DNA from: an uncultured delta proteobacterium
Lineage (GTDB): Bacteria; Desulfobacterota; Binatia; DP-6
NCBI GenBank assembly: GCA_963815115.1
Contig: CAWFFN010000008.1
Coordinates: 640,001-704,000, forward strand
Direction of reading: 5' to 3'
Length of the DNA: 64,000 nucleotides
Under the pieces are notes generated by a model. That model saw nothing but the letters and a program-made list of their open reading frames with translations, was not told the DNA's origin and did no database searches. Shown piece by piece: positions 10,988 through 56,524 of the stretch. The number at the start of each line of letters is the position of its first letter. Within the stretch, counting starts at the first letter, position 1. The position numbers were made by a program, and so were the translations under genes.

Positions 10988-12181
10988 TCAGCGCAATTGC
11001 GCCAGGGCGTCGCCGATCCGCCTGATGCCCTCCTCGAGCACCTGGCGCGGCGCCGCATAGGAGAGGCGGATGTGGCGCGGCGCGCCGAACCCTTCGCCCG
11101 GAACGGTCGCGACGTTCGCGTGGCGCAGCAGGTGGGTGGAGAGTTCGTGAGCGGACGCGACGATCCCGTCGGGTCCGCGGCGGCCGAAGACCGAGCTCAC
11201 GTCGGGGAAGACGTAGAAAGCGCCTCCCGGCACGGTGGTGCGCACGCCCGGGATGGCGCCGAGGCACGCGATGACGAGGTCGCGCCGCGCCAGGAACTCG
11301 CGCGCCATGGCTCCGACGCACTCCTGCGGCCCGGTGAGGGCGGCGACCGCCGCCGCCTGCGCGATCGACGTCGGATTCGACGTGCTCTGACTCTGCAGCG
11401 CGGTCATGGCCGCGATGGCCTCGGCCGGCGCTGCCACGTAGCCGATGCGCCAGCCCGTCATCGAGTACGTCTTCGAGACCGAGTTGACGACCAGGAGCCG
11501 CGGGCGCAGCTCCGGCACCAGCGCACCGATGTTCTCGATCGGGTGCTCGGCGATGTGCTCGTAGATGTCGTCGGTGAACACGATCAGTCCGCGGCGCAGC
11601 GCCACCTCGCCGATGGCGCGAACCTCGTCCGACGAGTAGACGGCTCCCGTCGGGTTGCTCGGGCTGTTCAGGACGAGGCCCTTGGTGCGCGCGCCACAGG
11701 CCGCCTCGAGCTGGGCGGCGCTCATGCGGAAGCCCTGCTCCGGGGTGGTCTCGACGACGCGGGTGGTCGCGCCGGCGAGCGTGAGCATGTCGGGGTAGCT
11801 CACCCAGTACGGCGCCGGGACGATCACCTCGTCACCCTCGTCGAAGAGGGCCTGGAAGGCGTTGTAGAGGACGTGCTTGCCGCCGCAGCTCGCCATCACC
11901 TCGGCGCGCTCGTAGGCGAGGCCGTTCTCGCGCCGGAGCTTCTCGCGGATGGCGTCCTTCAGCTCGGGGGTGCCGCCGACGGCCGTGTACTTCGTGAGCC
12001 CTCGGGCCAGGGCCTCGCGGGCCGCGGCCTTGATGTGCTCCGGGGTCTCGAAGTCGGGCTCGCCGGCAGAGAGGTCGACGATGTCGCGGCCCTCGGCGCG
12101 CAGGGCTGCCGCCTCGGCGGCCATGCCGAGGGTGGGTGACGGCTTGATGCCGCGCACGCGCGCGGCGAGCTCGAGAGTCAT
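10988..12181 (-). CDS. aspC: PLP-dependent aminotransferase class I (aspartate aminotransferase)
   Basis: Motifs GEPDFETP, PYWVSY, NSPSNPTG, DDIY, SKTYSMTGWRIGY. Confidence 0.9.
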   Translation of the reverse strand: MTLELAARVRGIKPSPTLGMAAEAAALRAEGRDIVDLSAGEPDFETPEHIKAAAREALARGLTKYTAVGGTPELKDAIREKLRRENGLAYERAEVMASCGGKHVLYNAFQALFDEGDEVIVPAPYWVSYPDMLTLAGATTRVVETTPEQGFRMSAAQLEAACGARTKGLVLNSPSNPTGAVYSSDEVRAIGEVALRRGLIVFTDDIYEHIAEHPIENIGALVPELRPRLLVVNSVSKTYSMTGWRIGYVAAPAEAIAAMTALQSQSTSNPTSIAQAAAVAALTGPQECVGAMAREFLARRDLVIACLGAIPGVRTTVPGGAFYVFPDVSSVFGRRGPDGIVASAHELSTHLLRHANVATVPGEGFGAPRHIRLSYAAPRQVLEEGIRRIGDALAQLR

Positions 12182-12675
12182 GATCGGCGCTCCCGGACGC
12201 GGGCCAGCAGGCGCGACAGGACCTGGTCCGGCAACAGGCCGGCGACGTTGCCGCCCAGGCTCGCGACCTCCTTCACGAGGCGCGAGCTGACGTAGAAGTG
12301 GGATTCCCCGGCGACCATGAAGATGGTCTCGACCTGGGGCTTCAGGTGACGATTCATCGAGGTCATCTGGAACTCGTATTCGAAATCTGCCACCGCGCGC
12401 AGACCGCGCACGATGGCGGTCGCGCCCCTGGCGGCCGCGTAGTCGACCAGGAGTCCCGAGAAGGCATCGGCGCGCACGCGCTCGCCGTCTGCGGCGAAGG
12501 TCTCGCGGATCATCCCCACCCGCTCCTCGGGAGTGAACCAGGCCGAGTCCTTGTCCGGGTTGAAGGCGACGGCGACGATCACCTGATCGAAGACCTGGAG
12601 GCTGCGGCGAATGATGTCGACGTGGCCGTTGGTGATGGGGTCGAAGGAGCCGGGGTACACGGCGATCCGGTTCAT
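12178..12675 (-). CDS. coaD: Phosphopantetheine adenylyltransferase
   Basis: Motifs YPGSFDPITNGH, RGLRAVADFEYE, SSRLVKEVA. Confidence 0.97.
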   Translation of the reverse strand: MNRIAVYPGSFDPITNGHVDIIRRSLQVFDQVIVAVAFNPDKDSAWFTPEERVGMIRETFAADGERVRADAFSGLLVDYAAARGATAIVRGLRAVADFEYEFQMTSMNRHLKPQVETIFMVAGESHFYVSSRLVKEVASLGGNVAGLLPDQVLSRLLARVRERRS

Positions 12676-13244
12676 GCCGTCACCTCCGGGCGCTGCAGCA
12701 GGGTGAGAGCCGTGTCGCCATGGCGGCGGCAGGCCACCGGGACGAGCCCCGGGCGCTCCGCCGGCGTCTCGTCGAGGGCGTGCTCGACGGCCAGCCAGCC
12801 CTCCTGACCGAGGACCTCGCCCGCGGCCACCTGATCGACGAGGCGCTGGACGCAGCCCGCGCGGTAGGGCGGATCGGCGAGGATGCCGTCGACCCGCACC
12901 CCGCGCCGTCCGAGCGTGCGCAGCGCGCGATCCGCCGCCATGGGCATCACCTCCGCGCGTCGGGTGAAGCCGCTCACCCGCAGGTTGCCGCGCAGCGTCC
13001 GGACGACGACCGCCGAGGCCTCGACGAAGACCACGGCGCGTGCGCCCCGCGACAGCGCCTCGATGCCGAGCGCACCGCTGCCCGCGTAGAGGTCGATCAC
13101 GCGCGCGTCGGTCAGCCAGCCTCGGTGTTCGAGCATGTTGAAGAGCGCTCCTCGCACCAGGCTCGAGGTCGGACGCGTACGGCCACCCGCCGGAACCCGG
13201 AGCCGCCGACCGTGCGCGCCTCCCGCGATGATCCTGAGCGCCAT
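12672..13244 (-). CDS. rsmD: 16S rRNA m2G966 methyltransferase
   Basis: Motifs LRIIAG, RPT, DLYAGSGALGIEALSRGA, DPPY. Directly upstream of coaD. Confidence 0.93.
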   Translation of the reverse strand: MALRIIAGGAHGRRLRVPAGGRTRPTSSLVRGALFNMLEHRGWLTDARVIDLYAGSGALGIEALSRGARAVVFVEASAVVVRTLRGNLRVSGFTRRAEVMPMAADRALRTLGRRGVRVDGILADPPYRAGCVQRLVDQVAAGEVLGQEGWLAVEHALDETPAERPGLVPVACRRHGDTALTLLQRPEVTA

Positions 13245-13297
13245 GATCGTCGGCCGTGGAGCTTATAGCGGGTGCGCGATGATCCGGGCAACCGACG

Positions 13298-13417
13298 TCA
13301 CTTCTTCTGTTGCATGTCGGCGCCGCAGCAACGCAGCGTACCGCTGCCGGCCTTGGTGACGATCACCTGCGAGCCGCAGGCGCTGCAGACGTAGATCTTG
13401 CCGATCTGGCTGGGCAT
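13298..13417 (-). CDS. Desulforedoxin-like mini-protein B (39 aa), absent from the ORF track
   Basis: MPSQIGKIYVCSACGSQVIVTKAGSGTLRCCGADMQQKK* has CxxC...CC. AGGAGG RBS upstream. Confidence 0.85.
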   Translation of the reverse strand: MPSQIGKIYVCSACGSQVIVTKAGSGTLRCCGADMQQKK

Positions 13418-13448
13418 GACGCTGTCGTCCTCCTCGACGGATGGGTTG

Positions 13449-14216
13449 CTACCGTCCCTCGTAGCGCGGCGGGCGGCGCTCGAGGAACGACCGCACCCCT
13501 TCCCGCCGGTCGCTGGTGGTCTGGAGCAGTACGTAGAGATCGTGCTCGAGCCGCACGCCGTCGTCCAGCGGGAGGTCGAGCGCGCGCCCCACCGCTTCCT
13601 TGGCCAGGCGCAGCGCGAGCGGACCGCGCTCGACGAGGCCGCGCGCCAGCGCGCCGGCGGCCGAACGCAGGCGCCGGGGAGCCACCACGCGCGACACGAG
13701 GCCCCACGCCGCGGCGGTGTGCGCCGCCACCGGCTCGCCGAGCAGCAGCATCGAGAGCGCCCGCGCGGTACCGACCAGGCGGGGAAGCCGCTGGGTCACC
13801 CCGCCGCCCGGCAGCCGGCCGCGGGACACCTCGGGCAGCTCCAGTACCGCGGTCGTCGCCGCGACGCGGAGGTCGCATGCCAGAGCCAGCGCGAGCCCCC
13901 AGCCTCGAACCGTCCCGGCCAGGCAGCCGATCACCGGCTTGGTCACGCCGGCGACCGCCGCCACCCCGTCCGGCCAGCCGGCGGGCGGCCACGCGATCCC
14001 GGCCGGCAGGCCGGCGCAGAAGTGCTCGCCGGCCCCCGACATGACCATCGCCCGCACCCGCCGGTCGTGCTCGACCGCCTCGCAGGCGTCGGCGAGCGCG
14101 CCCATCATCTCGTCGTCGAGCAGGTTGCGCCGCGCCGGACGTGCCAGCGTCAGCCAGGCGACGCCATCCTCGACCGCCGTCTCGACCGCGGGACGGCGTG
14201 CCGCATGGCGGCTCAC
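13449..14216 (-). CDS. Enoyl-CoA hydratase/isomerase (crotonase) family protein
   Basis: Motifs [43 protein letters not shown] start overlaps the ligase stop (GTGA). Confidence 0.88.
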
Positions 14217-15763
14217 GCGCCCTCGACCTGCGCGCGCAGCTCGCGGCGGAGCACCTTGCCCATCGGGTTCTTCGGCAGCTCGGGGAGGAAGCGGATCACC
14301 TCGGGCTTCTTGAAGCTCGCGAGGCGCTGCCGGCAGAATTCGCCCAGCTCCTCGGCGGTCGCCTGGGCATCCGGGCGCAGGACGACGAACGCGCCGATCC
14401 GCTGTCCCCACTCGACGTCCGGCAGCCCGACCACCGCCACCTCCTCGACGGCCGGGTGCGCTCCGAGCACCGTCTCGACCTCGGCGGGTGCGATGTTCTC
14501 CCCGCCCCGGATGATCATGTCGTCCTTGCGGCCCGCGACGTAGAGGTAGCCGTCCGCATCCACCCAGCCCAGGTCCCGCGTCGGGAGCCAGCCGTCGGCG
14601 GTGAACGGGGAGTCCCCTCCGCCGGCGTAGCCCTTCATCGCACGCGGCGTGCGGACGTGGATCTCCCCCACCTGATCGGCTCCCAGCTCCTCGCCCTCCT
14701 CGCCCACGATGCGCACCTCGACGTCGGGCAGCGGGCGACCGATGGAGCGCAGGCGCCGGAGCGTGCGCTCGACGTCGTCCGGGCCGCCGTCGAGGCGGTG
14801 ATCCTCCGGCCCCAGCACGGTCAGGGTGGAGGTGGTCTCGGTCTGCCCGAAGGCGTTCACGAAGCCGACCGCCTTCGGGAGGCGCTCGATGGCGCGGCGA
14901 ATGACCGGGAACGGCATGGGCGCGCCGCCGTAGGCGAGCACCTCCAGGCCGGCGAGGTCGCGCCGCTCGAGGTCGGGTTGATCGAGCAGGTGCTTCATCA
15001 TCGTCGGCACGACGAAGGCGTGCGTGATGCGCTCGCGCTCGACGAGATCGAGCCAGGCGCCTGCCTCGAACTGCGCCATGATCACGAGGCGGCGCCCGGT
15101 CCACAGCGTCGTCATCATGTTGGTCGCGCCGGCGATGTGGTAGAGCGGCGCGCACAGCAGCGCCGCGCCGCGCGGCGTGCCGTCGGCCAGCTCGACGTTG
15201 GCCGTGACGTAGGCGCTGAAGTCGCCGTACGTGAGCAGCACGCCCTTCGGCAGCGACGTCGTGCCGCTCGTGAACATGAGGATCGTGGTCTCCTCGTCCT
15301 CGACGTCGGCTTCCGCATCGAACGGCTCCGCGGCGGCGAGCAGACTCTCGTACGCCGGCAGATCACCGTGCGGGGCGTCGAAGCCGATCACCGTCCGCAG
15401 CGCGGGCAGCCCGGGACGCAAGGCCGTCACCGCGGGCACGTAGCGCCCGCCGACCAGCAGCACGCTGGCCTCCCCGGCTCGCAGCATGTGCTCCAGCTCC
15501 GGCTGCTTGGCGCGATAGTTGACCGGGATGAACACGCCGCCGAGGAGGGCGGTGGCATAGTAGGCCTCGACGTAGCGGTGCGAGTTGGTGTCCAGCGCCG
15601 CGACACGCGTGCCGCGACCAACGCCCAGCCGCGCGAGCGCGCCAGCGAGGCGCCGGACCCGGGCCTCGACCTCCGCGTAGGTGAAGCGCTGTCCGTCGAA
15701 GACCACCGCCTCCTGCTCGGGAACGATGCCCGCAGGGATGGTGAGGAAGGCGACGGTATTCAT
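14213..15763 (-). CDS. AMP-dependent acyl-CoA synthetase/ligase
   Basis: Motifs [45 protein letters not shown]. Confidence 0.93.
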
Positions 15764-16494
15764 GGCGTCGCGCCTTCTAGCCCGAGCGCGAGCCGGCGCT
15801 CAAGGGCGATGCCGTCCTCGAGCGACAGGTCGTGGGCCGCGCGCACGCAGCGCCGGGCGGCGCGGGCAACGCGCGGCGGTACGCGCGCCAGCCGGTTCGC
15901 CAGGGCGCGCGTCGCGGCGTCGAGGCGCGGCCGCGGCACGACCCGCACGACCAGCCCGAGGCGCTCCGCCTCGCCGGCGTCGATCCGCCGGCCCGTCAGC
16001 ACCAGGTCGAGCGCCCGGCCGACGCCGACCCGCCGCGGCAGGGTCTGCGTCCCCGCCACCCCCGGGATCATGCCGCGCCCGGTCTCGGGAAGCGCAAAGC
16101 TCGCGTCGGCCGCGGCGATGCAGAGGTCGCAGAGGAGTGCCATCTCCATACCGCCCCCCACCGCGAGCCCATGGACCGCGGCCAGGGTGACCGCGCGCAG
16201 CCGCAGGAGCTGGCCCCACACGTCGCGCTGCCAGCGTACCTGGCGGGCGATGAACGGCGACGGTGCGCTGCCGAACTCGCGCAGGTCGCCGCCGGTGGAG
16301 AACGCCGGCCCACGGCCGCGCAGGACGAGGACGCGGACGTCCGGGTCCGCGTCGGCAGCGGCGAGCACGGCGTGCAGGTCGTCGCGCATCGCCATGCTGT
16401 AGGCGTTGAGCACCTCGGGCCGGTCGAGGCTCACCGTCGCGACCGCGCCCCGGGTCTCGTAACGCAGCGTCACGTACGGCCTCACGCGCGTCAC
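15760..16494 (-). CDS. Enoyl-CoA hydratase/isomerase (crotonase) family protein
   Basis: Motifs [34 protein letters not shown] start with a GGGGAG RBS. Confidence 0.9.
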   Translation of the reverse strand: MTRVRPYVTLRYETRGAVATVSLDRPEVLNAYSMAMRDDLHAVLAAADADPDVRVLVLRGRGPAFSTGGDLREFGSAPSPFIARQVRWQRDVWGQLLRLRAVTLAAVHGLAVGGGMEMALLCDLCIAAADASFALPETGRGMIPGVAGTQTLPRRVGVGRALDLVLTGRRIDAGEAERLGLVVRVVPRPRLDAATRALANRLARVPPRVARAARRCVRAAHDLSLEDGIALERRLALGLEGATP

Positions 16495-16619
16495 ACGATC
16501 TCCCCGCCGATCCTCGTCAGGCGGACGCGCGCGGGCGCGACCCTCGTCCGGCGACGCGGATCGGCCTCCACGACGACTCGATCGGCCGGACGGGTTCTCC
16601 AGGCTGCAGGAGTCGTGCG

Positions 16620-16763
16620 TCAGTCCGACGACGGGAGCGGCTTCGCTTCCTTGAGCTTCATCTCGTGGTCGCAGCAGGTGAGCTCGCCGCCGCCGGGCTT
16701 GTTGCACAGCACCTCTGCGCCGCAGGCGTCACACAGGTACCGCTTGCCGAGCTGGGTGGACAT
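16620..16763 (-). CDS. Desulforedoxin-like mini-protein A (47 aa), absent from the ORF track
   Basis: MSTQLGKRYLCDACGAEVLCNKPGGGELTCCDHEMKLKEAKPLPSSD* has CxxC...CC. Confidence 0.85.
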   Translation of the reverse strand: MSTQLGKRYLCDACGAEVLCNKPGGGELTCCDHEMKLKEAKPLPSSD

Positions 16764-16827
16764 GGCCCGTCTGGTAGCAGACAGGCACGCCGCGGCTCAA
16801 GGAGGCGGCTCCGACCGTCTCGTGCGG

Positions 16828-17877
16828 CTACGCGAGGGGCCAGGTCGCGACCCGCGCCACCGTGACCGCGTGACCGCCGCGCACGGCGAGCTCCGTGCCC
16901 GGCTCCCAGTGCTCGCGGCGCACGAAGCCCAGCCCGGCGAGCGTGCCGGCGCCGAAGGCACGCGCGATGGTGGTGAGGTGCCCGACGTCCTTGCCGTCGC
17001 GCACCAGCGCCGCGCCGCTCGCCGGTGCCGGTCCGGCGAGCAGGAGCGGGACCAGGCGGCGGTTGACGTGCCCCCGGGCCGTCCCGCGCGCGACCACCTC
17101 CTGCCCGAGGTAGCACCCCTTCGTGATGCTGATCGCATCCTCGACCGGCACCTCCAGCGCCAGGGTCTTCTCGCCCATGTCGAGGCCGACACGCGGCACC
17201 CCGACCTCGACGCGCCGGCCCTCGAGCGCCTCCATGCCGCACGGCCTCGCGCCTGCAGCGCCGAGGGCGTCCCACACCGCGGCAGCGTGCGCGCGCGGCA
17301 CGTGCAGCGCGAAGCCGTCACCGCGCACCTCGCTGGTGCGCTGGATGCGGACGTCCACCCCGGCGATCCGGGCCTGCGCGTGTGCGAACGGCGCCAGCGC
17401 CGCCGCGACCCCGGCGAGGAGCCGCGCGGCCCCGGGTCCCTCGACGCCGACCAGCGCCGGCGGATCGGCCGGCGCGAGCAGCTCGACGTCGTCCGCGATG
17501 AGGAGCGCTTCCAGCGCGGCGACCATCCCGTCGCGGGCGCGGACGTCACAGTCGAGCAGGATCTCGTCCGCGAGCGCGGCCAGGCGGAGATCGGCGGTGA
17601 CGCGCCCCTGCACCGTCAGTAGCAGCGCCGGGCAGCCCTCGCCGGGGCCGAGGCGGGCGACGTCGTTGCTCAGCATGCCCTGGAGGAAGGACGCGCGGTC
17701 GGGGCCGGTGGCGCGCATCAGCGTGCGGAAGCCCAGGTCGATCAGCGCCGCTCCCCGGGTGAGCGCGCCATACTCCGCCTCCGGGTCGCCGAAATGGCGC
17801 GGCAGCGCGACGCCGCGGTCGTCGTCGTGCGACGCGCCGGCCGCCACGAGATGGGCGTGCAGGGCGGTCTCGATCAT
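16828..17877 (-). CDS. ygfZ: YgfZ/GcvT-like folate-binding protein
   Basis: Motifs [15 protein letters not shown] and the YgfZ signature [12 protein letters not shown]. Confidence 0.88.
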
Positions 17878-17942
17878 CGGAGACCACCGTGCCCGGCTCC
17901 TTCCGGCTTGACAAGGGAGGCGAAGACACGGAAAGCGCAAAC

Positions 17943-18743
17943 GTGGGCGGTGCGCCGGCGATCTACGAGGACATCCTCTACGAGTCACGGGACGGCATCG
18001 CCTGGATCACCATCAACCGGCCCGAGGTGCTGAACGCCTTCCGCGCCCGGACGGTCGACGAGCTCATCGCCGCCTTCCGCACCGCCTGGCACGACGCCGG
18101 CGTCGGCGTCGCCGTGCTCACGGGCGCCGGCGAGCGCGCCTTCTCCAGCGGCGGCGACCAGACCGAGCGCAGCGACCAGGGCTACGGCGGCGGCGGCGGC
18201 GGTCCGGGGCTCGACGTGCACGGGCTGCACGGCATCCTCCGGGCGATCCCGAAGCCGGTGATCGCCATGGTGAACGGCTGGGCGATCGGCGGCGGTCACG
18301 TGCTCCACGTGCTGTGCGATCTCACCATCGCAGCCGACACCGCACGCTTCGGACAGGTCGGGCCCCGGGTCGGATCGGTCGATCCCGGCTTCGGCACCGC
18401 GTATCTGGCGCGCGTGGTGGGCGAGAAGAAAGCGCGCGAGATGTGGTACCTCTGCCGGCAGTACACGGCCGAGCAGGCGCTGGCGATGGGCCTGGTCAAC
18501 GCGGTGGTGCCCGCGGCCGAGCTGCGTGCCGAGACCGAGCGCTGGTGCCACGAGCTCCTCGAGAAGAGCCCGACCGCCCTCAAGCTCGCCAAGCAGTCCT
18601 TCAACGCCGACACGGAGCACATCGCGGGCATCACCGAGCTGGGCTTCGCCGCGCTCGAGCTGTACTATCGCACCGACGAGGCCGAGGAGGGCCGGCGCGC
18701 CTTCCTCGAGCGGCGGCCGCCCCGCTTCCGGCGCTTGCCCTAG
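17943..18743 (+). CDS. MenB/BadI subfamily crotonase (naphthoate synthase or 2-ketocyclohexanecarboxyl-CoA hydrolase)
   Basis: Motifs [59 protein letters not shown]. Start approximate. Confidence 0.85.
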
Positions 18744-18773: not shown

Positions 18774-20144
18774 ATGTCGAACCGCCGGCTCCCTCTCGCG
18801 ACCTGGCTCACGACCGGCATGGCGCTGGCGGCTGGCAGCGCTGCACAGGCCGTCATCACGCTCGAGGATCCGGTCAATTTCCAGGTGAAGAACACCTTCA
18901 GCGCCACGACGCTCGGCGTGCCCGGGCCGCTCGGCGGACTGATGTTCTCGCCCGACGGCACCGTGCTCTACCTCGTCGGCGCCTCCGAGCTCACCACCAG
19001 CGCGCTGTACCGCATCCCCGTCACCCGCGATCCGGCGACGCACCAGGTCACCGACCTCGGCCCCGCGGCCGCCATCACCAAGGCCTTCGACGGCAATGCG
19101 GCGACGCCCGGCCTCGACACGGGACTCGAGCTCGGGCCGGGCGGCACGCTCTTCTACACCTACTGGAGCTCGAACTTCCTCGGCGAGCGTCCCGGCGGCG
19201 TCGCCGGTGCGGAGACGCAGTTCAACATGGCCCCCATCGGCGTTCCCTCCTCCATCGCCGGGCTCACCTTCTCGCCTCATCGGACCGATCCGGGCACCGG
19301 ATTCGGCCGCATGCAGATCAGCTCGTGGCAGGGGGCGAATCTCTACGAGGTGCCGCTCACGTCCGGCGCCGGCGGCATCTTCACGCCCGGGGCCGTCACG
19401 CTCTTCGTCACGTTGCCACAGCAAGGCACGGGTGCCATCCAGTACGTCCCGTCGGGCCCGCTGGCCGGCAACCTCATGTACGTCAACTGGAACTTCGGCG
19501 AGGTGCGGCTCCTCACCATCGACCCGGCGACGGGTCTTGCGGTCGACAAGGGCACCGGGCAGCCGACGCTCGGAACGACCGATCCCGTGGACGCCCGCTT
19601 CGCCTCCGGCCTCGGCGTGGGACCATGGGGACTCGAGTTCGATCCCCTGACCAACGACTTCTTCGTCGCCACCTTCCGTGGGGACCCGGCCAACACGATC
19701 GTCCAGATCGGCGGCGCCGGCTTCCCGCCGCCCGAGAGCACGACGACGACCACCGCCACCGTGACCACGACGACGACCACCACCACGCTGCCGTCGGAGT
19801 GCGGCGTCCGTGCGGCCACCTTCGAGTCGATCGATTGCCGGCTCGACCTGCTCGTGGTGAAGGTCGGCGCCGCGCAGGACCTCGGCAGGGGAAAGAAATT
19901 CCTGCTCGCCGGCGTGACCGCGGCGCGAGCCAAGAAGCAGGACGCCGAGGCCGACGTCGCGGCGGGCCGCGGCAAGCCCGCGAACAAGGCCCTCGGGAAG
20001 TCCATCCGGAAGATGATCAACTTCGCGCACCGCCTGCGCTCGCTCACGTCCCGCAAGAACATCCCGGGTACGACGCGAACGGCGCTCCTCGACGACGCGA
20101 ACCCGATCCTGGAGGACCTGAAGACCCTGCGGCAGCAGTTCTGA
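18774..20144 (+). CDS. Secreted protein: beta-rich domain, Thr-rich linker, basic helical C-terminal domain
   Basis: RBS GAGGAG, signal peptide (...SAAQA), propeller-like repeats (GLMFSPDG, GLTFSP, GLEFDP), poly-Thr linker. Confidence 0.75.
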   Translation: MSNRRLPLATWLTTGMALAAGSAAQAVITLEDPVNFQVKNTFSATTLGVPGPLGGLMFSPDGTVLYLVGASELTTSALYRIPVTRDPATHQVTDLGPAAAITKAFDGNAATPGLDTGLELGPGGTLFYTYWSSNFLGERPGGVAGAETQFNMAPIGVPSSIAGLTFSPHRTDPGTGFGRMQISSWQGANLYEVPLTSGAGGIFTPGAVTLFVTLPQQGTGAIQYVPSGPLAGNLMYVNWNFGEVRLLTIDPATGLAVDKGTGQPTLGTTDPVDARFASGLGVGPWGLEFDPLTNDFFVATFRGDPANTIVQIGGAGFPPPESTTTTTATVTTTTTTTTLPSECGVRAATFESIDCRLDLLVVKVGAAQDLGRGKKFLLAGVTAARAKKQDAEADVAAGRGKPANKALGKSIRKMINFAHRLRSLTSRKNIPGTTRTALLDDANPILEDLKTLRQQF

Positions 20145-21493: not shown

Positions 21494-21627
21494 GACCCTG
21501 GTCAGCTACTACACCACCGGCAACGGGGCGAGCGAGGCGCAACCGTTGATCTCGGCGAGCGCACTGACATACAGCAACGAGGCGCCGGGCTCATCCCGGG
21601 GGGCGCAAAGGGACGGACGGGGCCGCG

Positions 21628-23292
21628 ATGCTCGACCTGGTACTGCGTGGCGGAACGGTGTGCGACGGGAGCGGCGCACCCGCGCAGACTGCCGACGTCG
21701 CGATCGAGGGCGGGCGCGTCGTGGCGGTCGGGCGCGTCGCCGAGGCGGCACGGCGCGTCGTCGACGTCGCCGGCCTGGTGGTCGCGCCGGGCTTCGTCGA
21801 CGTCCACACGCACTACGACGCCCAGGTCACGTGGGACGGGCTGTGCACACCGTCGTGCTGGCATGGGGTCACCACGGTCGTGCTCGGCAACTGCGGCTTC
21901 GCGCTCGCGCCGTGCCGGGCGGGCGATCGGGATCGCCTGCTCCGCATGCTCGAGTACGTCGAGGGCATGCCGCTGGAGAGCCTGCGGGCGGGCGTGCGCT
22001 GGAGCTGGGAGACGGTGCCCGACTACCTGGCCATGTTGCGCGCGGCGCGACTCGGGCCGAACGTTGGCGTGCTGGCCGGCCACTCGGCGCTGCGCGTGTT
22101 CGTCATGGGCGAAGCGGCCTACGACCGGGCCGCCACCGACGAGGAGATCGCCCGCATGCAGGCGATCGTGCGCGAGGCCATGGCGGCGGGTGCGCTCGGC
22201 TTCGCGACCTCGCGTTCCGCGGGTCACGTCGGGGAAGGCGGGCGTCCCGTGCCCAGCCGGCTCGCGACGCACGACGAGCTGCGCGCGCTCGCCGGCGCGA
22301 TGGCGAGCGGCGGCCGCGGGGTGCTGGAGATCACGCCCGAGACCTTCCCGATCGCCGAGCACGAGCTCTCGTTCCTGCAGGACCTCGCCGTCGAGAGCGG
22401 ACGCGCGGTGTCCTTCAGCGCCATCCTGGACCTGCCCGAACGCGACGGCGTCTGGGAGCCGGTCTGGGCGCGCGTTCGCGCGGGCCACGCGTGCGGCGCT
22501 CGCGTCGTTCCGCAGGTGTCGTGCCGGCCGATGCGTTTCGAGTTCGATCTCGTGACGGGCTGCGCCTCGCTCGACGCCCTGCCCGCCTGGAAGCGCTTCC
22601 GCGAAGTGCGCGATCACGCCGCGGTGCTCGCCGATCCCGGGTTCCGGGCCACGGTCAAGGACCAGACGCTCGGCCGGCCCGATACGCCGTCGAGCAAGCG
22701 CTGGGCGACCGTCGTGGTGGAGGAGGTGCGAGACCCGGCTCATGTCCGGTTCGCCGGCAGGACGCTCGCGGACGTCGCCGCGGCACGCGGCGGAGACGTC
22801 ATCGACGCGCTCTTCGATCTCGCACTCGCGGACGACCTCGCGACGCGTTTCTCGATGCTGCTGCTCAACTACGACGACGAGCGGGTCGCCGATCTGCTGC
22901 GGCAGCCGGAAGGCCTGATCGCGCTCTCCGACGCTGGCGCGCACGTCTCCGTTCTGTGCGACGCCGGCTACGCGACGCACCTGCTCGGGTACTGGGTGCG
23001 CGAGCGCGGCCTCCTCCCGCTTGAGCAGGCGATCCACAGGCTCACCGCGATGCCCGCGGACGTCTACGGCATCCCCGATCGCGGCCGTCTCGTGCCCGGC
23101 GCCGCCGCGGACGTCACGTGCTTCGACCCGGCACGGATCGGCTCGCGGGCGCCGGAGCGCGTGACCGACTTCCCGGCCGGTGCGCGGCGCTGGATCGTGC
23201 GCGCCGACGGGATCGCCCACGTCCTCGTCGGCGGCGTGCCGTTCATCGAGAGCGGGGAGCTGACGGGGAGCCGTCCCGGCCAGGTGATCTGA
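21628..23292 (+). CDS. Amidohydrolase, N-acyl-D-amino-acid deacylase family
   Basis: Motifs PGFVDVHTHYD, GNCG, SDAGAHV, DRGRLVPGAAADV. Confidence 0.92.
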   Translation: MLDLVLRGGTVCDGSGAPAQTADVAIEGGRVVAVGRVAEAARRVVDVAGLVVAPGFVDVHTHYDAQVTWDGLCTPSCWHGVTTVVLGNCGFALAPCRAGDRDRLLRMLEYVEGMPLESLRAGVRWSWETVPDYLAMLRAARLGPNVGVLAGHSALRVFVMGEAAYDRAATDEEIARMQAIVREAMAAGALGFATSRSAGHVGEGGRPVPSRLATHDELRALAGAMASGGRGVLEITPETFPIAEHELSFLQDLAVESGRAVSFSAILDLPERDGVWEPVWARVRAGHACGARVVPQVSCRPMRFEFDLVTGCASLDALPAWKRFREVRDHAAVLADPGFRATVKDQTLGRPDTPSSKRWATVVVEEVRDPAHVRFAGRTLADVAAARGGDVIDALFDLALADDLATRFSMLLLNYDDERVADLLRQPEGLIALSDAGAHVSVLCDAGYATHLLGYWVRERGLLPLEQAIHRLTAMPADVYGIPDRGRLVPGAAADVTCFDPARIGSRAPERVTDFPAGARRWIVRADGIAHVLVGGVPFIESGELTGSRPGQVI

Positions 23293-49157: not shown

Positions 49158-49589
49158 CTACTTGCCGGGCAGCGTGCTCAGGGGGAGTCCGAGGCGTGCG
49201 GCCGCGTCTCGCACGCGGAAGTCGTTGGAACAGAGAGGCCACGATTGGCATCGTTCCGCGGAGGCCAGATGGATGGCGTCGAGCGATCGCAGGGCGACCG
49301 CCGGGTGACAGGCCTGCAGGATGCCGTTGGCCCTGCGGAGGATCTCGACGCCGAGGGGCACGAGGTTCAGACGACGCGCCGCGATGTCGTCCTCGACCTG
49401 CTTCCACGCCTTCCTCCGATGCGAGGCGCCGAGCGCTCCTTCGCGCTCCTTGCGAAGGAGGGCGGAGAAGCACTCGGTCATGATCAGCTGGGACGACCAG
49501 ACGACCTGTCCCTCGACGAGGCCGACATAGAAGCCGCTGTCGGGCTCGCGCACCAGCAGCTTCACGAGGATCGCCGTGTCCACGTACAC
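49158..49589 (-). CDS. vapC: PIN-domain toxin
   Basis: Motifs YVDTAILVK, TE, LRSLDAIHLASA, SND. Confidence 0.88.
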   Translation of the reverse strand: MYVDTAILVKLLVREPDSGFYVGLVEGQVVWSSQLIMTECFSALLRKEREGALGASHRRKAWKQVEDDIAARRLNLVPLGVEILRRANGILQACHPAVALRSLDAIHLASAERCQSWPLCSNDFRVRDAAARLGLPLSTLPGK

Positions 49590-49595
49590 GGGCGG

Positions 49596-56365: not shown

Positions 56366-56438
<73 letters not shown>

Positions 56439-56524
56439 CTCTCGGGCGTCAGCCTGCCGGTCGAAAGATGGTGATGGCGCCCTCCAGGAGGGATGCGCTC
56501 ACGTCGGTGCGGCGGAGCAGGGTG

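Follow-up and report, generated by a model that had tools for sequence, protein, structure and literature searches.

A split pair of desulforedoxin-fold mini-proteins as candidate partner of a FadD-like acyl-CoA ligase subfamily

Two very small genes, here called miniA and miniB, lie at the two ends of a block encoding a FadD-like acyl-CoA ligase and two crotonases in the genome of an uncultured Binatia bacterium (assembly GCA_963815115.1, contig CAWFFN010000008.1). The 64,000 nucleotides (nt) analyzed, positions 640,001 to 704,000 of that contig, are referred to as the window; coordinates given without a locus name are those of the window. On balance, and with some reserve, we favor the view that the products of miniA and miniB make up a split, heterodimer-forming accessory subunit of a subfamily of FadD-like acyl-CoA ligases, a subunit that would bind its ligase. 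By sequence comparison, the unsplit counterpart of this pair is one chain of about 80–120 amino acids with two tandem desulforedoxin-fold domains. This small, widespread and unnamed protein, whose gene mostly adjoins the ligase gene, is probably the dedicated partner of one type of acyl-CoA ligase in pathways of the beta-oxidation type.

Results

miniA and miniB are conserved genes

The original prediction, an earlier reading of the window made from its letters, had pointed to two minus-strand open reading frames (ORFs) sharing the pattern GKxYxCxxCGxxVxxxKxGxGxLxCCxxxM. Both are found where they had been placed, with the pattern in each, and both score above the cut-off of the Pfam family PF06397 (Desulfoferrod_N; Table 1), with E-values of 2.7e-07 for miniA and 7e-11 for miniB. 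The two proteins are 46% identical to each other, and the profile–profile match of their families reaches E 2e-19. The cysteine ligands C11, C14, C30 and C31 carry the same numbering in both, and all four are present without exception in the 50 aligned miniA sequences and likewise in the 50 of miniB. In addition, miniA presents a further cysteine (C20), the motif GKRY and the invariant C-terminal tail MKLKEAKPLPSSD, a conserved segment of 11 residues that closes with KPLPSSD; miniB has GKIY in place of GKRY, carries no tail and resembles the N-halves of the fused proteins described below. Among the solved structures of the PDB, miniB matches the desulforedoxin of D. gigas at E 1e-06 with the cysteine ligands in register, and a profile built from miniA orthologues recovers desulfoferrodoxin (E 1.6e-4) and desulforedoxin (E 2.4e-3), with no other significant match. 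The NCBIfam model TIGR00319, which miniB passes, gives miniA 20.8 bits and thus leaves it below the cut-off; against TIGR00320 (desulfoferrodoxin / class I superoxide reductase) the mini-proteins reach 26–28 bits, far below the cut-off of 146.9. The remark that no superoxide reductase accompanies the pair holds for the window, as no such domain was found in a Pfam scan of the 38 ORFs that passed a filter on G+C composition. miniA and miniB are the sole ORFs of their type in the 64-kb window, and the ligase between them is the sole ligase of its kind there.

Close relatives number 52 for miniA (70–96% identity, one of them named Candidatus Binataceae) and 7 for miniB. The third-position G+C of miniA (0.92) and miniB (0.90) and a second-position value of about 0.5 are like those of real genes of the window, and the uncorrected ratio of nonsynonymous to synonymous change (pN/pS) is 0.28 for miniA (49 orthologues) and 0.38 for miniB (48 orthologues), with synonymous sites near saturation. 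That the mini ORFs are untranslated, or conserved for a reason at the level of RNA or DNA, we regard as extremely improbable: miniA has no clear Shine–Dalgarno sequence, which would fit such an explanation, but the pN/pS values, the gene-typical codon-position composition and the Pfam matches all speak against it, no Rfam family matches between 10000 and 20000, and the fused full-length homologues on plasmids are annotated in RefSeq as coding sequences, under the name 'hypothetical protein'. Because of the PF06397 and PDB matches, the codon-position G+C, the pN/pS values and the invariant cysteine ligands, we conclude from the sequence comparisons that miniA and miniB are real, conserved genes and not chance ORFs.

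Fused homologues contain both halves in one chain

A phmmer search of the full library with miniA returned 457 matches at E up to 1e-3; the figures that follow come from the 150 of these that were listed. By hand count, two or more matched stretches are present in 56 of the 150 relatives. The fused proteins inspected are mostly 80–120 amino acids long; their N-half resembles miniB and is joined by a linker to a C-half that resembles miniA and closes with the miniA-type tail. In P0064 (90 amino acids, linker of about six residues), identity to miniB is 66% in the N-half and identity to miniA, taken across all 47 residues, is 55% in the C-half; pairing the halves the other way round yields 44%. 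These half-to-half identities fix the order of the fusion as miniB-like and then miniA-like, and they bear out the proposal that the two mini genes correspond to the split halves of a fused protein. The fused protein which the original prediction had described, with an N-half of the 'LRCGG.PM' type and a C-half 'GKRY..EVLCTKPG..KEAKPLPSSD', does exist, and P0109, P0116, P0148, P0153 and P0175 are examples of it. The C-halves of the fused plasmid genes are 42–58% identical to miniA. Five cysteine-poor forms (P0109, P0110, P0116, P0129 and P0199) match no model of Pfam or NCBIfam. Two further relatives, P0124, in which a miniA-like piece runs into an amidohydrolase, and P0071, with a foreign N-terminus, look like artefacts of frameshift or gene calling.

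Gene neighborhood ties the family to acyl-CoA ligases

A tblastn search of the PLSDB plasmids located the family at 21 places on 19 plasmids, and the fused query P0175 at 20 places on 18 plasmids. The plasmids belong to Rhodococcus (12), Streptomyces (3), Sphingobium (2), Mycobacterium (1) and Sphingomonas (1). Twenty places were inspected, 17 as annotated loci and three from coordinates, with the second place in CP130956 left out. At 18 of the 20, a gene annotated as an AMP-binding enzyme, a class I adenylate-forming enzyme or a fatty-acid-CoA ligase directly adjoins the mini gene on the same strand at a distance of 2–59 nt. The order of the two genes is not fixed, as the ligase comes first in five and the mini gene first in ten of 15 adjacent loci. 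Some of these plasmids are near-copies of one another (DK17/DK180, qingshengii/erythropolis, opacus/koreensis), so that the independent cases amount to about a dozen. As a control, six other ligase homologues on plasmids (L097–L102) were searched by hmmsearch in all frames, and no mini gene was found within 2.5 kb of them. Other frequent neighbors of the fused genes are CaiB-type CoA-transferases, acyl-CoA dehydrogenases, short-chain dehydrogenases/reductases, and pairs of a thiolase and a protein of the oligonucleotide/oligosaccharide-binding (OB) fold. One mini gene, that of L092, lies between alpha/beta hydrolases and two FAD-dependent oxidoreductases.

The split form was followed in Binatia with an alignment of close Binatia-type miniA sequences as query. 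A scan of one genome per species gave 367 matching stretches, with a relative encoded in 340 of them; the 80 best-matching loci were searched by tblastn with the proteins of the window, and nearly all of these are metagenome-assembled genomes of Binatia or of a 'delta proteobacterium'. Among the 62 loci with at least 5.5 kb of sequence downstream, the ligase is found in 58, miniB in 59, and the full block of crotonase 1, ligase, crotonase 2 and miniB follows miniA in 56. Single genes are missing from three of the six incomplete loci (L029, L047 and L072); the entire block is missing from the other three (L048, L055 and L069) and also from L015, which has 5 kb downstream. Identity to the window proteins across the loci ranges from 46 to 87% for the ligase and from 31 to 73% for YgfZ, encoded upstream of miniA, with values of 46–58% and 31–48%, respectively, in divergent Binatia genomes; with identities this low, the gene order has been retained over large distances. 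Beyond miniB the synteny is limited to closer relatives, with coaD in 12 and rsmD in six of the 54 loci that extend at least 2 kb past miniB.

The original prediction would have fallen with homologues unlinked to acyl-CoA ligases or crotonases and never fused. Both fusions and linkage were found: the fused gene stands beside a ligase on the plasmids, and the split pair encloses one in Binatia. The part of the claim that concerns crotonases fares less evenly. It stands for the Binatia block and is weaker on plasmids, where seven of the 17 annotated loci have a crotonase in the flank.

Linked ligases are consistent with one subfamily

The ligases beside fused genes are 37–46% identical to the window ligase. 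A quick maximum-likelihood tree was computed from 35 rows, namely the window ligase, 13 of the 49 Binatia rows and 21 plasmid rows, and was left unrooted. The plasmid ligases, L094 and L095 included, group in a single clade (15 rows) that has a support of 100 in the Shimodaira–Hasegawa-like approximate likelihood-ratio test (SH-aLRT); the Binatia ligases form a separate clade of 14 rows (97), and the six ligases without a mini gene stand apart from both (99). Eighteen alignment columns are common to the Binatia-type ligases (50 sequences, conserved in at least 90%) and the plasmid clade (17 sequences, at least 85%), with at most one of the six others sharing the residue. They include Y83, Y185, E191, R224, W237, N303 and R323, and also G411, D414 and R419 of the hinge motif, which spans residues 411–423 of the window ligase; at these last three positions, D, K and S/T are found in the majority of the six unlinked homologues. 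The 18 shared columns fit a single ligase subfamily.

The metal site is lost in many members, the GKR motif and the tail are retained

The original prediction had cast the module as metal-binding, and this does not hold for the family as a whole. Across 34 aligned members, single and fused, four positions do not vary, namely G6, K7, R8 and the terminal D47, and the motifs retained by the family are GKR[YF] and the C-terminal [KR]xLPSxD. For a census of the ligands we used the 137 of the 150 listed representatives that have the GKR motif and left out the 13 lacking it. The miniA-like domain keeps four ligand cysteines in only 71 of these, three in 28 and two or fewer in 38, with none at all in 21. 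The fused plasmid proteins typically retain two cysteines in the N-half and at most one in the C-half. The alignments thus indicate that the metal site, kept in Binatia, is dispensable for the common role of the family. Because the metal ligands are lost and the GKR motif and tail retained, we infer that the conserved role is structural or activating, not redox.

This pattern also bears on a rival reading, in which miniA and miniB would be ordinary desulforedoxins, small proteins whose Fe(Cys)4 site donates electrons either to a pathway oxidoreductase or to an enzyme of oxygen defence, and in which their location in the operon would follow from this redox function. Both proteins do pass PF06397, their four ligands do not vary in Binatia, and redox genes occur near some plasmid copies (fdxA at L081 and L093, a ferredoxin gene at L084). 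The Binatia operon, however, contains no oxidoreductase, the scanned ORFs of the window include no superoxide reductase domain, and the fused homologues stand beside the same kind of ligase without most or all of the ligand cysteines; conservation lies on the GKR motif and the C-terminal tail rather than on the metal site. We judge a redox role of this kind to be unlikely.

The mini-protein could also be read as a carrier or acceptor: the ligase would attach an acyl group to the conserved Cys20 or activate the invariant C-terminal Asp, and the intermediates would be protein-bound. The crotonases, and the amidohydrolase found in relatives, would then act on a protein-tethered intermediate, and this would be a carrier-protein pathway of a new type, based on the desulforedoxin fold. 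The terminal Asp, present in all 34 aligned sequences and in 114 of the 137 representatives, suits this idea, and so does a cysteine at position 20 in 102 of the 137, forms without a metal site included. Position 20 is, however, Val or another residue in the remaining 35, and free CoA thioesters are the substrates of all the enzymes encoded around the plasmid copies (acyl-CoA dehydrogenases, CaiB-type CoA-transferases, crotonases, thiolases). A carrier of this sort would loosely resemble LysW, a zinc-ribbon amino-group carrier of about 50 amino acids whose C-terminal tail, of the acidic EDWGE type, is essential for its function. The mini-proteins share with it the small size, the zinc-ribbon-type character and the presence of a tail; they differ in that their PLPSSD tail is not acidic and their partner belongs to another enzyme class, and the weak match to LysW in the PDB (E 0.93 over 18 residues) is not significant. 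LysW is served by ATP-grasp enzymes and not by members of the ANL superfamily, and we know of no ANL enzyme that activates a protein C-terminus. A carrier function is, in our estimation, quite improbable.

Observations that weigh against a ligase partner

Several observations count against assigning the mini-proteins to the ligase. The survey of gene context covers Binatia genomes and PLSDB plasmids only. On the plasmids, two of the 20 copies, L092 (R. gordoniae) and L103 (Streptomyces N50), have no adjoining ligase, and the same two plasmids encode a same-clade ligase 28 and 15 kb away (L095 and L094, respectively) that has no adjoining mini gene. L103 has crotonases nearby and no ligase within 3 kb, and in these two cases the family may serve another partner. 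No fusion of a mini domain with a ligase occurs among the 150 listed of the 457 matches; the longer miniA relatives (6 matches, 9 candidates) are N-terminally extended gene calls and one chimera, again with no ligase fusion. The ligase tree has only six outgroup rows, with long branches, and does not establish a sister relation between the Binatia and the plasmid ligases. Bit scores were tried as a divider of mini-linked from other ligases and dropped, as a local tblastn did not reproduce them.

In Binatia itself, two other genes compete with the ligase for the role of partner. The linkage of miniA to ygfZ is no less tight than that to the ligase: the end of ygfZ lies within 600 nt upstream of miniA in 73 of the 77 loci with at least 1.5 kb upstream. 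On the other side, 46 of 70 loci have more than 1.2 kb between miniA and crotonase 1, and the insert that separates them there, directly after miniA, encodes an Amidohydro_3 enzyme of about 500–535 amino acids; the distance is at most 400 nt in 23 of the 70, as it is in the window. In four loci (L015, L048, L055 and L069), miniA and the amidohydrolase gene are present with no ligase or miniB in the stretch. The 125-nt spacer between miniA and crotonase 1 of the window retains traces of the insert: its first approximately 30 nt align with the beginning, and its last approximately 45 nt with the end, of the amidohydrolase gene found in L001 and L002. From these alignments we conclude that the spacer is the deletion scar of an Amidohydro_3 gene. 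The original prediction had placed the mini genes at the exact ends of the enzyme block; in the window, this exact bracketing is partly a product of the deletion. A second Amidohydro_3 gene of the window (21568–23292) was considered as the missing operon gene and rejected, as it is not the orthologue.

These findings are what an alternative assignment would build on, in which the Binatia miniA works with YgfZ and the amidohydrolase, for instance as a subunit of the hydrolase or in the handling of metal or Fe-S, with its proximity to the ligase as secondary synteny. Amidohydrolase-family genes in the 3.5–7 kb flanks of the plasmid loci L082 and L091 would agree with it. Yet miniA is intact in the window and in the 23 other loci that have no amidohydrolase gene in this position, miniB always stands at the far end of the ligase block, and ygfZ is beside the fused gene in none of the 17 annotated plasmid loci, as against 18 of 20 places for the ligase. 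We therefore hold a partnership with YgfZ or the amidohydrolase to be improbable, and retain the ligase as the favored partner.

Anatomy of the operon

On the minus strand, miniA is followed by the spacer, crotonase 1, the ligase, crotonase 2, a gap of 31 nt, and miniB (Table 1). The ygfZ-like gene ends 64 nt upstream of miniA; rsmD, coaD and then an aminotransferase gene follow downstream of miniB.

Table 1. Coordinates of the mini genes, the enzyme block and adjacent features of the window, with the amidohydrolase counterparts of two related loci
Feature	Position	Strand	Description
miniA	16620-16763	-	47 amino acids, desulforedoxin-fold; PF06397 30.6 bits vs cut-off 23
miniB	13298-13417	-	39 amino acids, desulforedoxin-fold; PF06397 42.0 bits vs cut-off 23; TIGR00319 37.0 vs 36.05
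Spacer miniA/crotonase 1	16495-16619	-	125 nt; taken as remnant of a deleted Amidohydro_3 gene (alignment with L001, L002)
Crotonase 1	15760-16494	-	244 amino acids, enoyl-CoA hydratase/isomerase family; PF00378 E 3.1e-52; start GTG 16494 behind GGGGAGA
AMP-forming acyl-CoA ligase	14213-15763	-	516 amino acids, ANL superfamily, FadD-like; PF00501 + PF13193
Crotonase 2	13449-14216	-	255 amino acids; PF00378 E 1.4e-46; start GTG 14216
YgfZ/CAF17-like folate-binding protein (GcvT fold)	16828-17988	-	PF01571, PF25455, TIGR03317; true start uncertain
rsmD	12672-13244	-	downstream housekeeping; TIGR00095 above cut-off
coaD	12178-12675	-	downstream housekeeping; TIGR01510 above cut-off
Amidohydrolase counterpart, L001	9180-10604		Amidohydro_3 (Pfam)
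Amidohydrolase counterpart, L034	9186-10793		Amidohydro_3 (Pfam)

The translational coupling that had been proposed for the crotonase–ligase–crotonase block is supported by overlaps of stop and start codons, ATGA between crotonase 1 and the ligase and GTGA between the ligase and crotonase 2. It does not extend to miniA, which the spacer separates from crotonase 1. The gap between crotonase 2 and miniB contains the Shine–Dalgarno sequence GAGGAGG. No promoter-like or terminator-like sites were found in 12900–18100.

Against the NCBIfam model PRK06187 the ligase scores 466 bits, below the cut-off of 476, and the solved structures nearest to it are Mycobacterium tuberculosis FadD5, a feruloyl-CoA synthetase and FadD13. 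Crotonase 1 has both glutamates of the hydratase motifs (GGGMEMAL and LPETG), positions which we take to be the catalytic sites of crotonases. Crotonase 2 retains the second (LPEVS) and has Ala at the first (GWGLALAL), the GGGxE position, at which crotonase 1 and the MenB-like neighbor have Glu or His. Because this replacement by Ala is seen in crotonase 2 only, the two crotonases are probably not redundant, and one may be of isomerase, hydrolase or decarboxylase type.

The MenB-like neighbor (17889–18743, plus strand) is a MenB/BadI-like crotonase gene divergent from ygfZ; it scores 348.9 on the MenB equivalog model (cut-off 342.7) and adjoins ygfZ in closer relatives as well. As this ORF and the 5' end of the ygfZ ORF overlap, one or both starts probably lie further in. 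It is followed on the same strand by a 456-amino-acid ORF (18774–20144) with coding-like composition, no Pfam match and a long Thr-rich run near residue 330. Elsewhere in the window, a PIN-domain ORF of 145 amino acids (49158–49595, minus strand) is possibly a VapC-type toxin of a toxin–antitoxin pair, the segment 24001–26000 has a G+C content of 0.63, compared with about 0.70–0.75 elsewhere, and no ORF that passes the composition filter, and the sole tRNA gene is a tRNA-Thr (CGT) at 56366–56439 on the plus strand.

Discussion

The split arrangement of miniA and miniB can be explained by a simple model. The two products would form a heterodimer resembling the homodimer of desulforedoxin, with a structural Cys4 metal site (Fe or Zn) holding each half in Binatia. 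We propose the heterodimer because fused forms exist and because desulforedoxin is a dimer. Contact with the ligase would be made by the unvarying elements of the miniA-type half, its basic strand with GKR[YF] and its C-terminal tail [KR]xLPSxD, and the pair would stabilize or activate the ligase in the manner in which MbtH-like proteins act on the adenylation domains of non-ribosomal peptide synthetases (NRPS). We infer binding to the ligase because adjacency survives in both gene orders and across three phyla. As a conjecture, the contact might be at the hinge between the two ligase domains, where the A8 motif is altered in the linked ligases.

Comparison with desulforedoxin (D. gigas Dx, PDB code 1DXG) and with the N-terminal domain of desulfoferrodoxin places the mini-proteins in a known fold family, with the same size class and the same CxxC...CC ligands with their adjacent cysteine pair. 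The PDB holds six desulforedoxin entries with 12 chains, two in each entry, which fits the desulforedoxin dimer and the two-domain fused forms. The differences are no less evident. Two distinct paralogues take the place of a homodimer, and the tie is to an acyl-CoA ligase, with no superoxide reductase as partner; miniA adds a fifth cysteine, the basic GKRY motif and the conserved tail; and the metal ligands are lost in many members.

MbtH-like proteins (PF03621) are small, non-catalytic partners of NRPS adenylation domains, needed for their folding or activity. The mini-proteins resemble them in being well under 120 amino acids long, in being encoded beside an ANL adenylate-forming enzyme and in being conserved with it across taxa. 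They differ in that the presumed partner is a FadD-like ligase, not an NRPS domain, and that the protein can be split into two genes. No match to PF03621 was found for miniA and miniB (E up to 0.01) or for 13 fused and related members (E up to 0.1), and the likeness is, by our comparison, a functional analogy without homology. A second parallel is offered by the DUF35 / OB-fold zinc-ribbon proteins, which scaffold thiolase-type enzymes. These are also small and of zinc-ribbon type, with a structural role in CoA-thioester pathways, and an OB-fold protein with its thiolase is encoded in L082–L085; they have another fold and belong to another family, the partner is a thiolase rather than a ligase, and no sequence relation was seen.

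The fold is thus known, and the ligase-linked family, its split form, the motif and the tail are outside any model of Pfam-A or NCBIfam. A literature search found no description of the ligase-linked family; most subscription journals were outside its coverage, and an earlier description is possible. The sections seen of the Binatota genome paper (PMC8262859) mention complete fatty-acid degradation and do not mention the mini–ligase operon. With P0047 as query, a protein-cluster atlas gave only clusters of PF06397 under the name 'hypothetical protein'.

As a rule, acyl-CoA ligases of the FadD type are regarded as stand-alone enzymes, and to our knowledge the physiological role of the desulforedoxin fold is still unclear. 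If the model is correct, the mini-proteins would be the acyl-CoA-ligase counterpart of MbtH-like proteins in Binatia, Actinomycetota and Alphaproteobacteria, and a common 'hypothetical protein' of the catabolic clusters of Rhodococcus, Streptomyces, Mycobacterium and sphingomonads would be explained. The desulforedoxin fold would acquire a second role, independent of metal. Ligases of this type might then be inactive or insoluble when expressed without the mini partner. The split form of Binatia and the fused form of the other phyla constitute a natural Rosetta-stone pair, on which this partnership would be directly testable.

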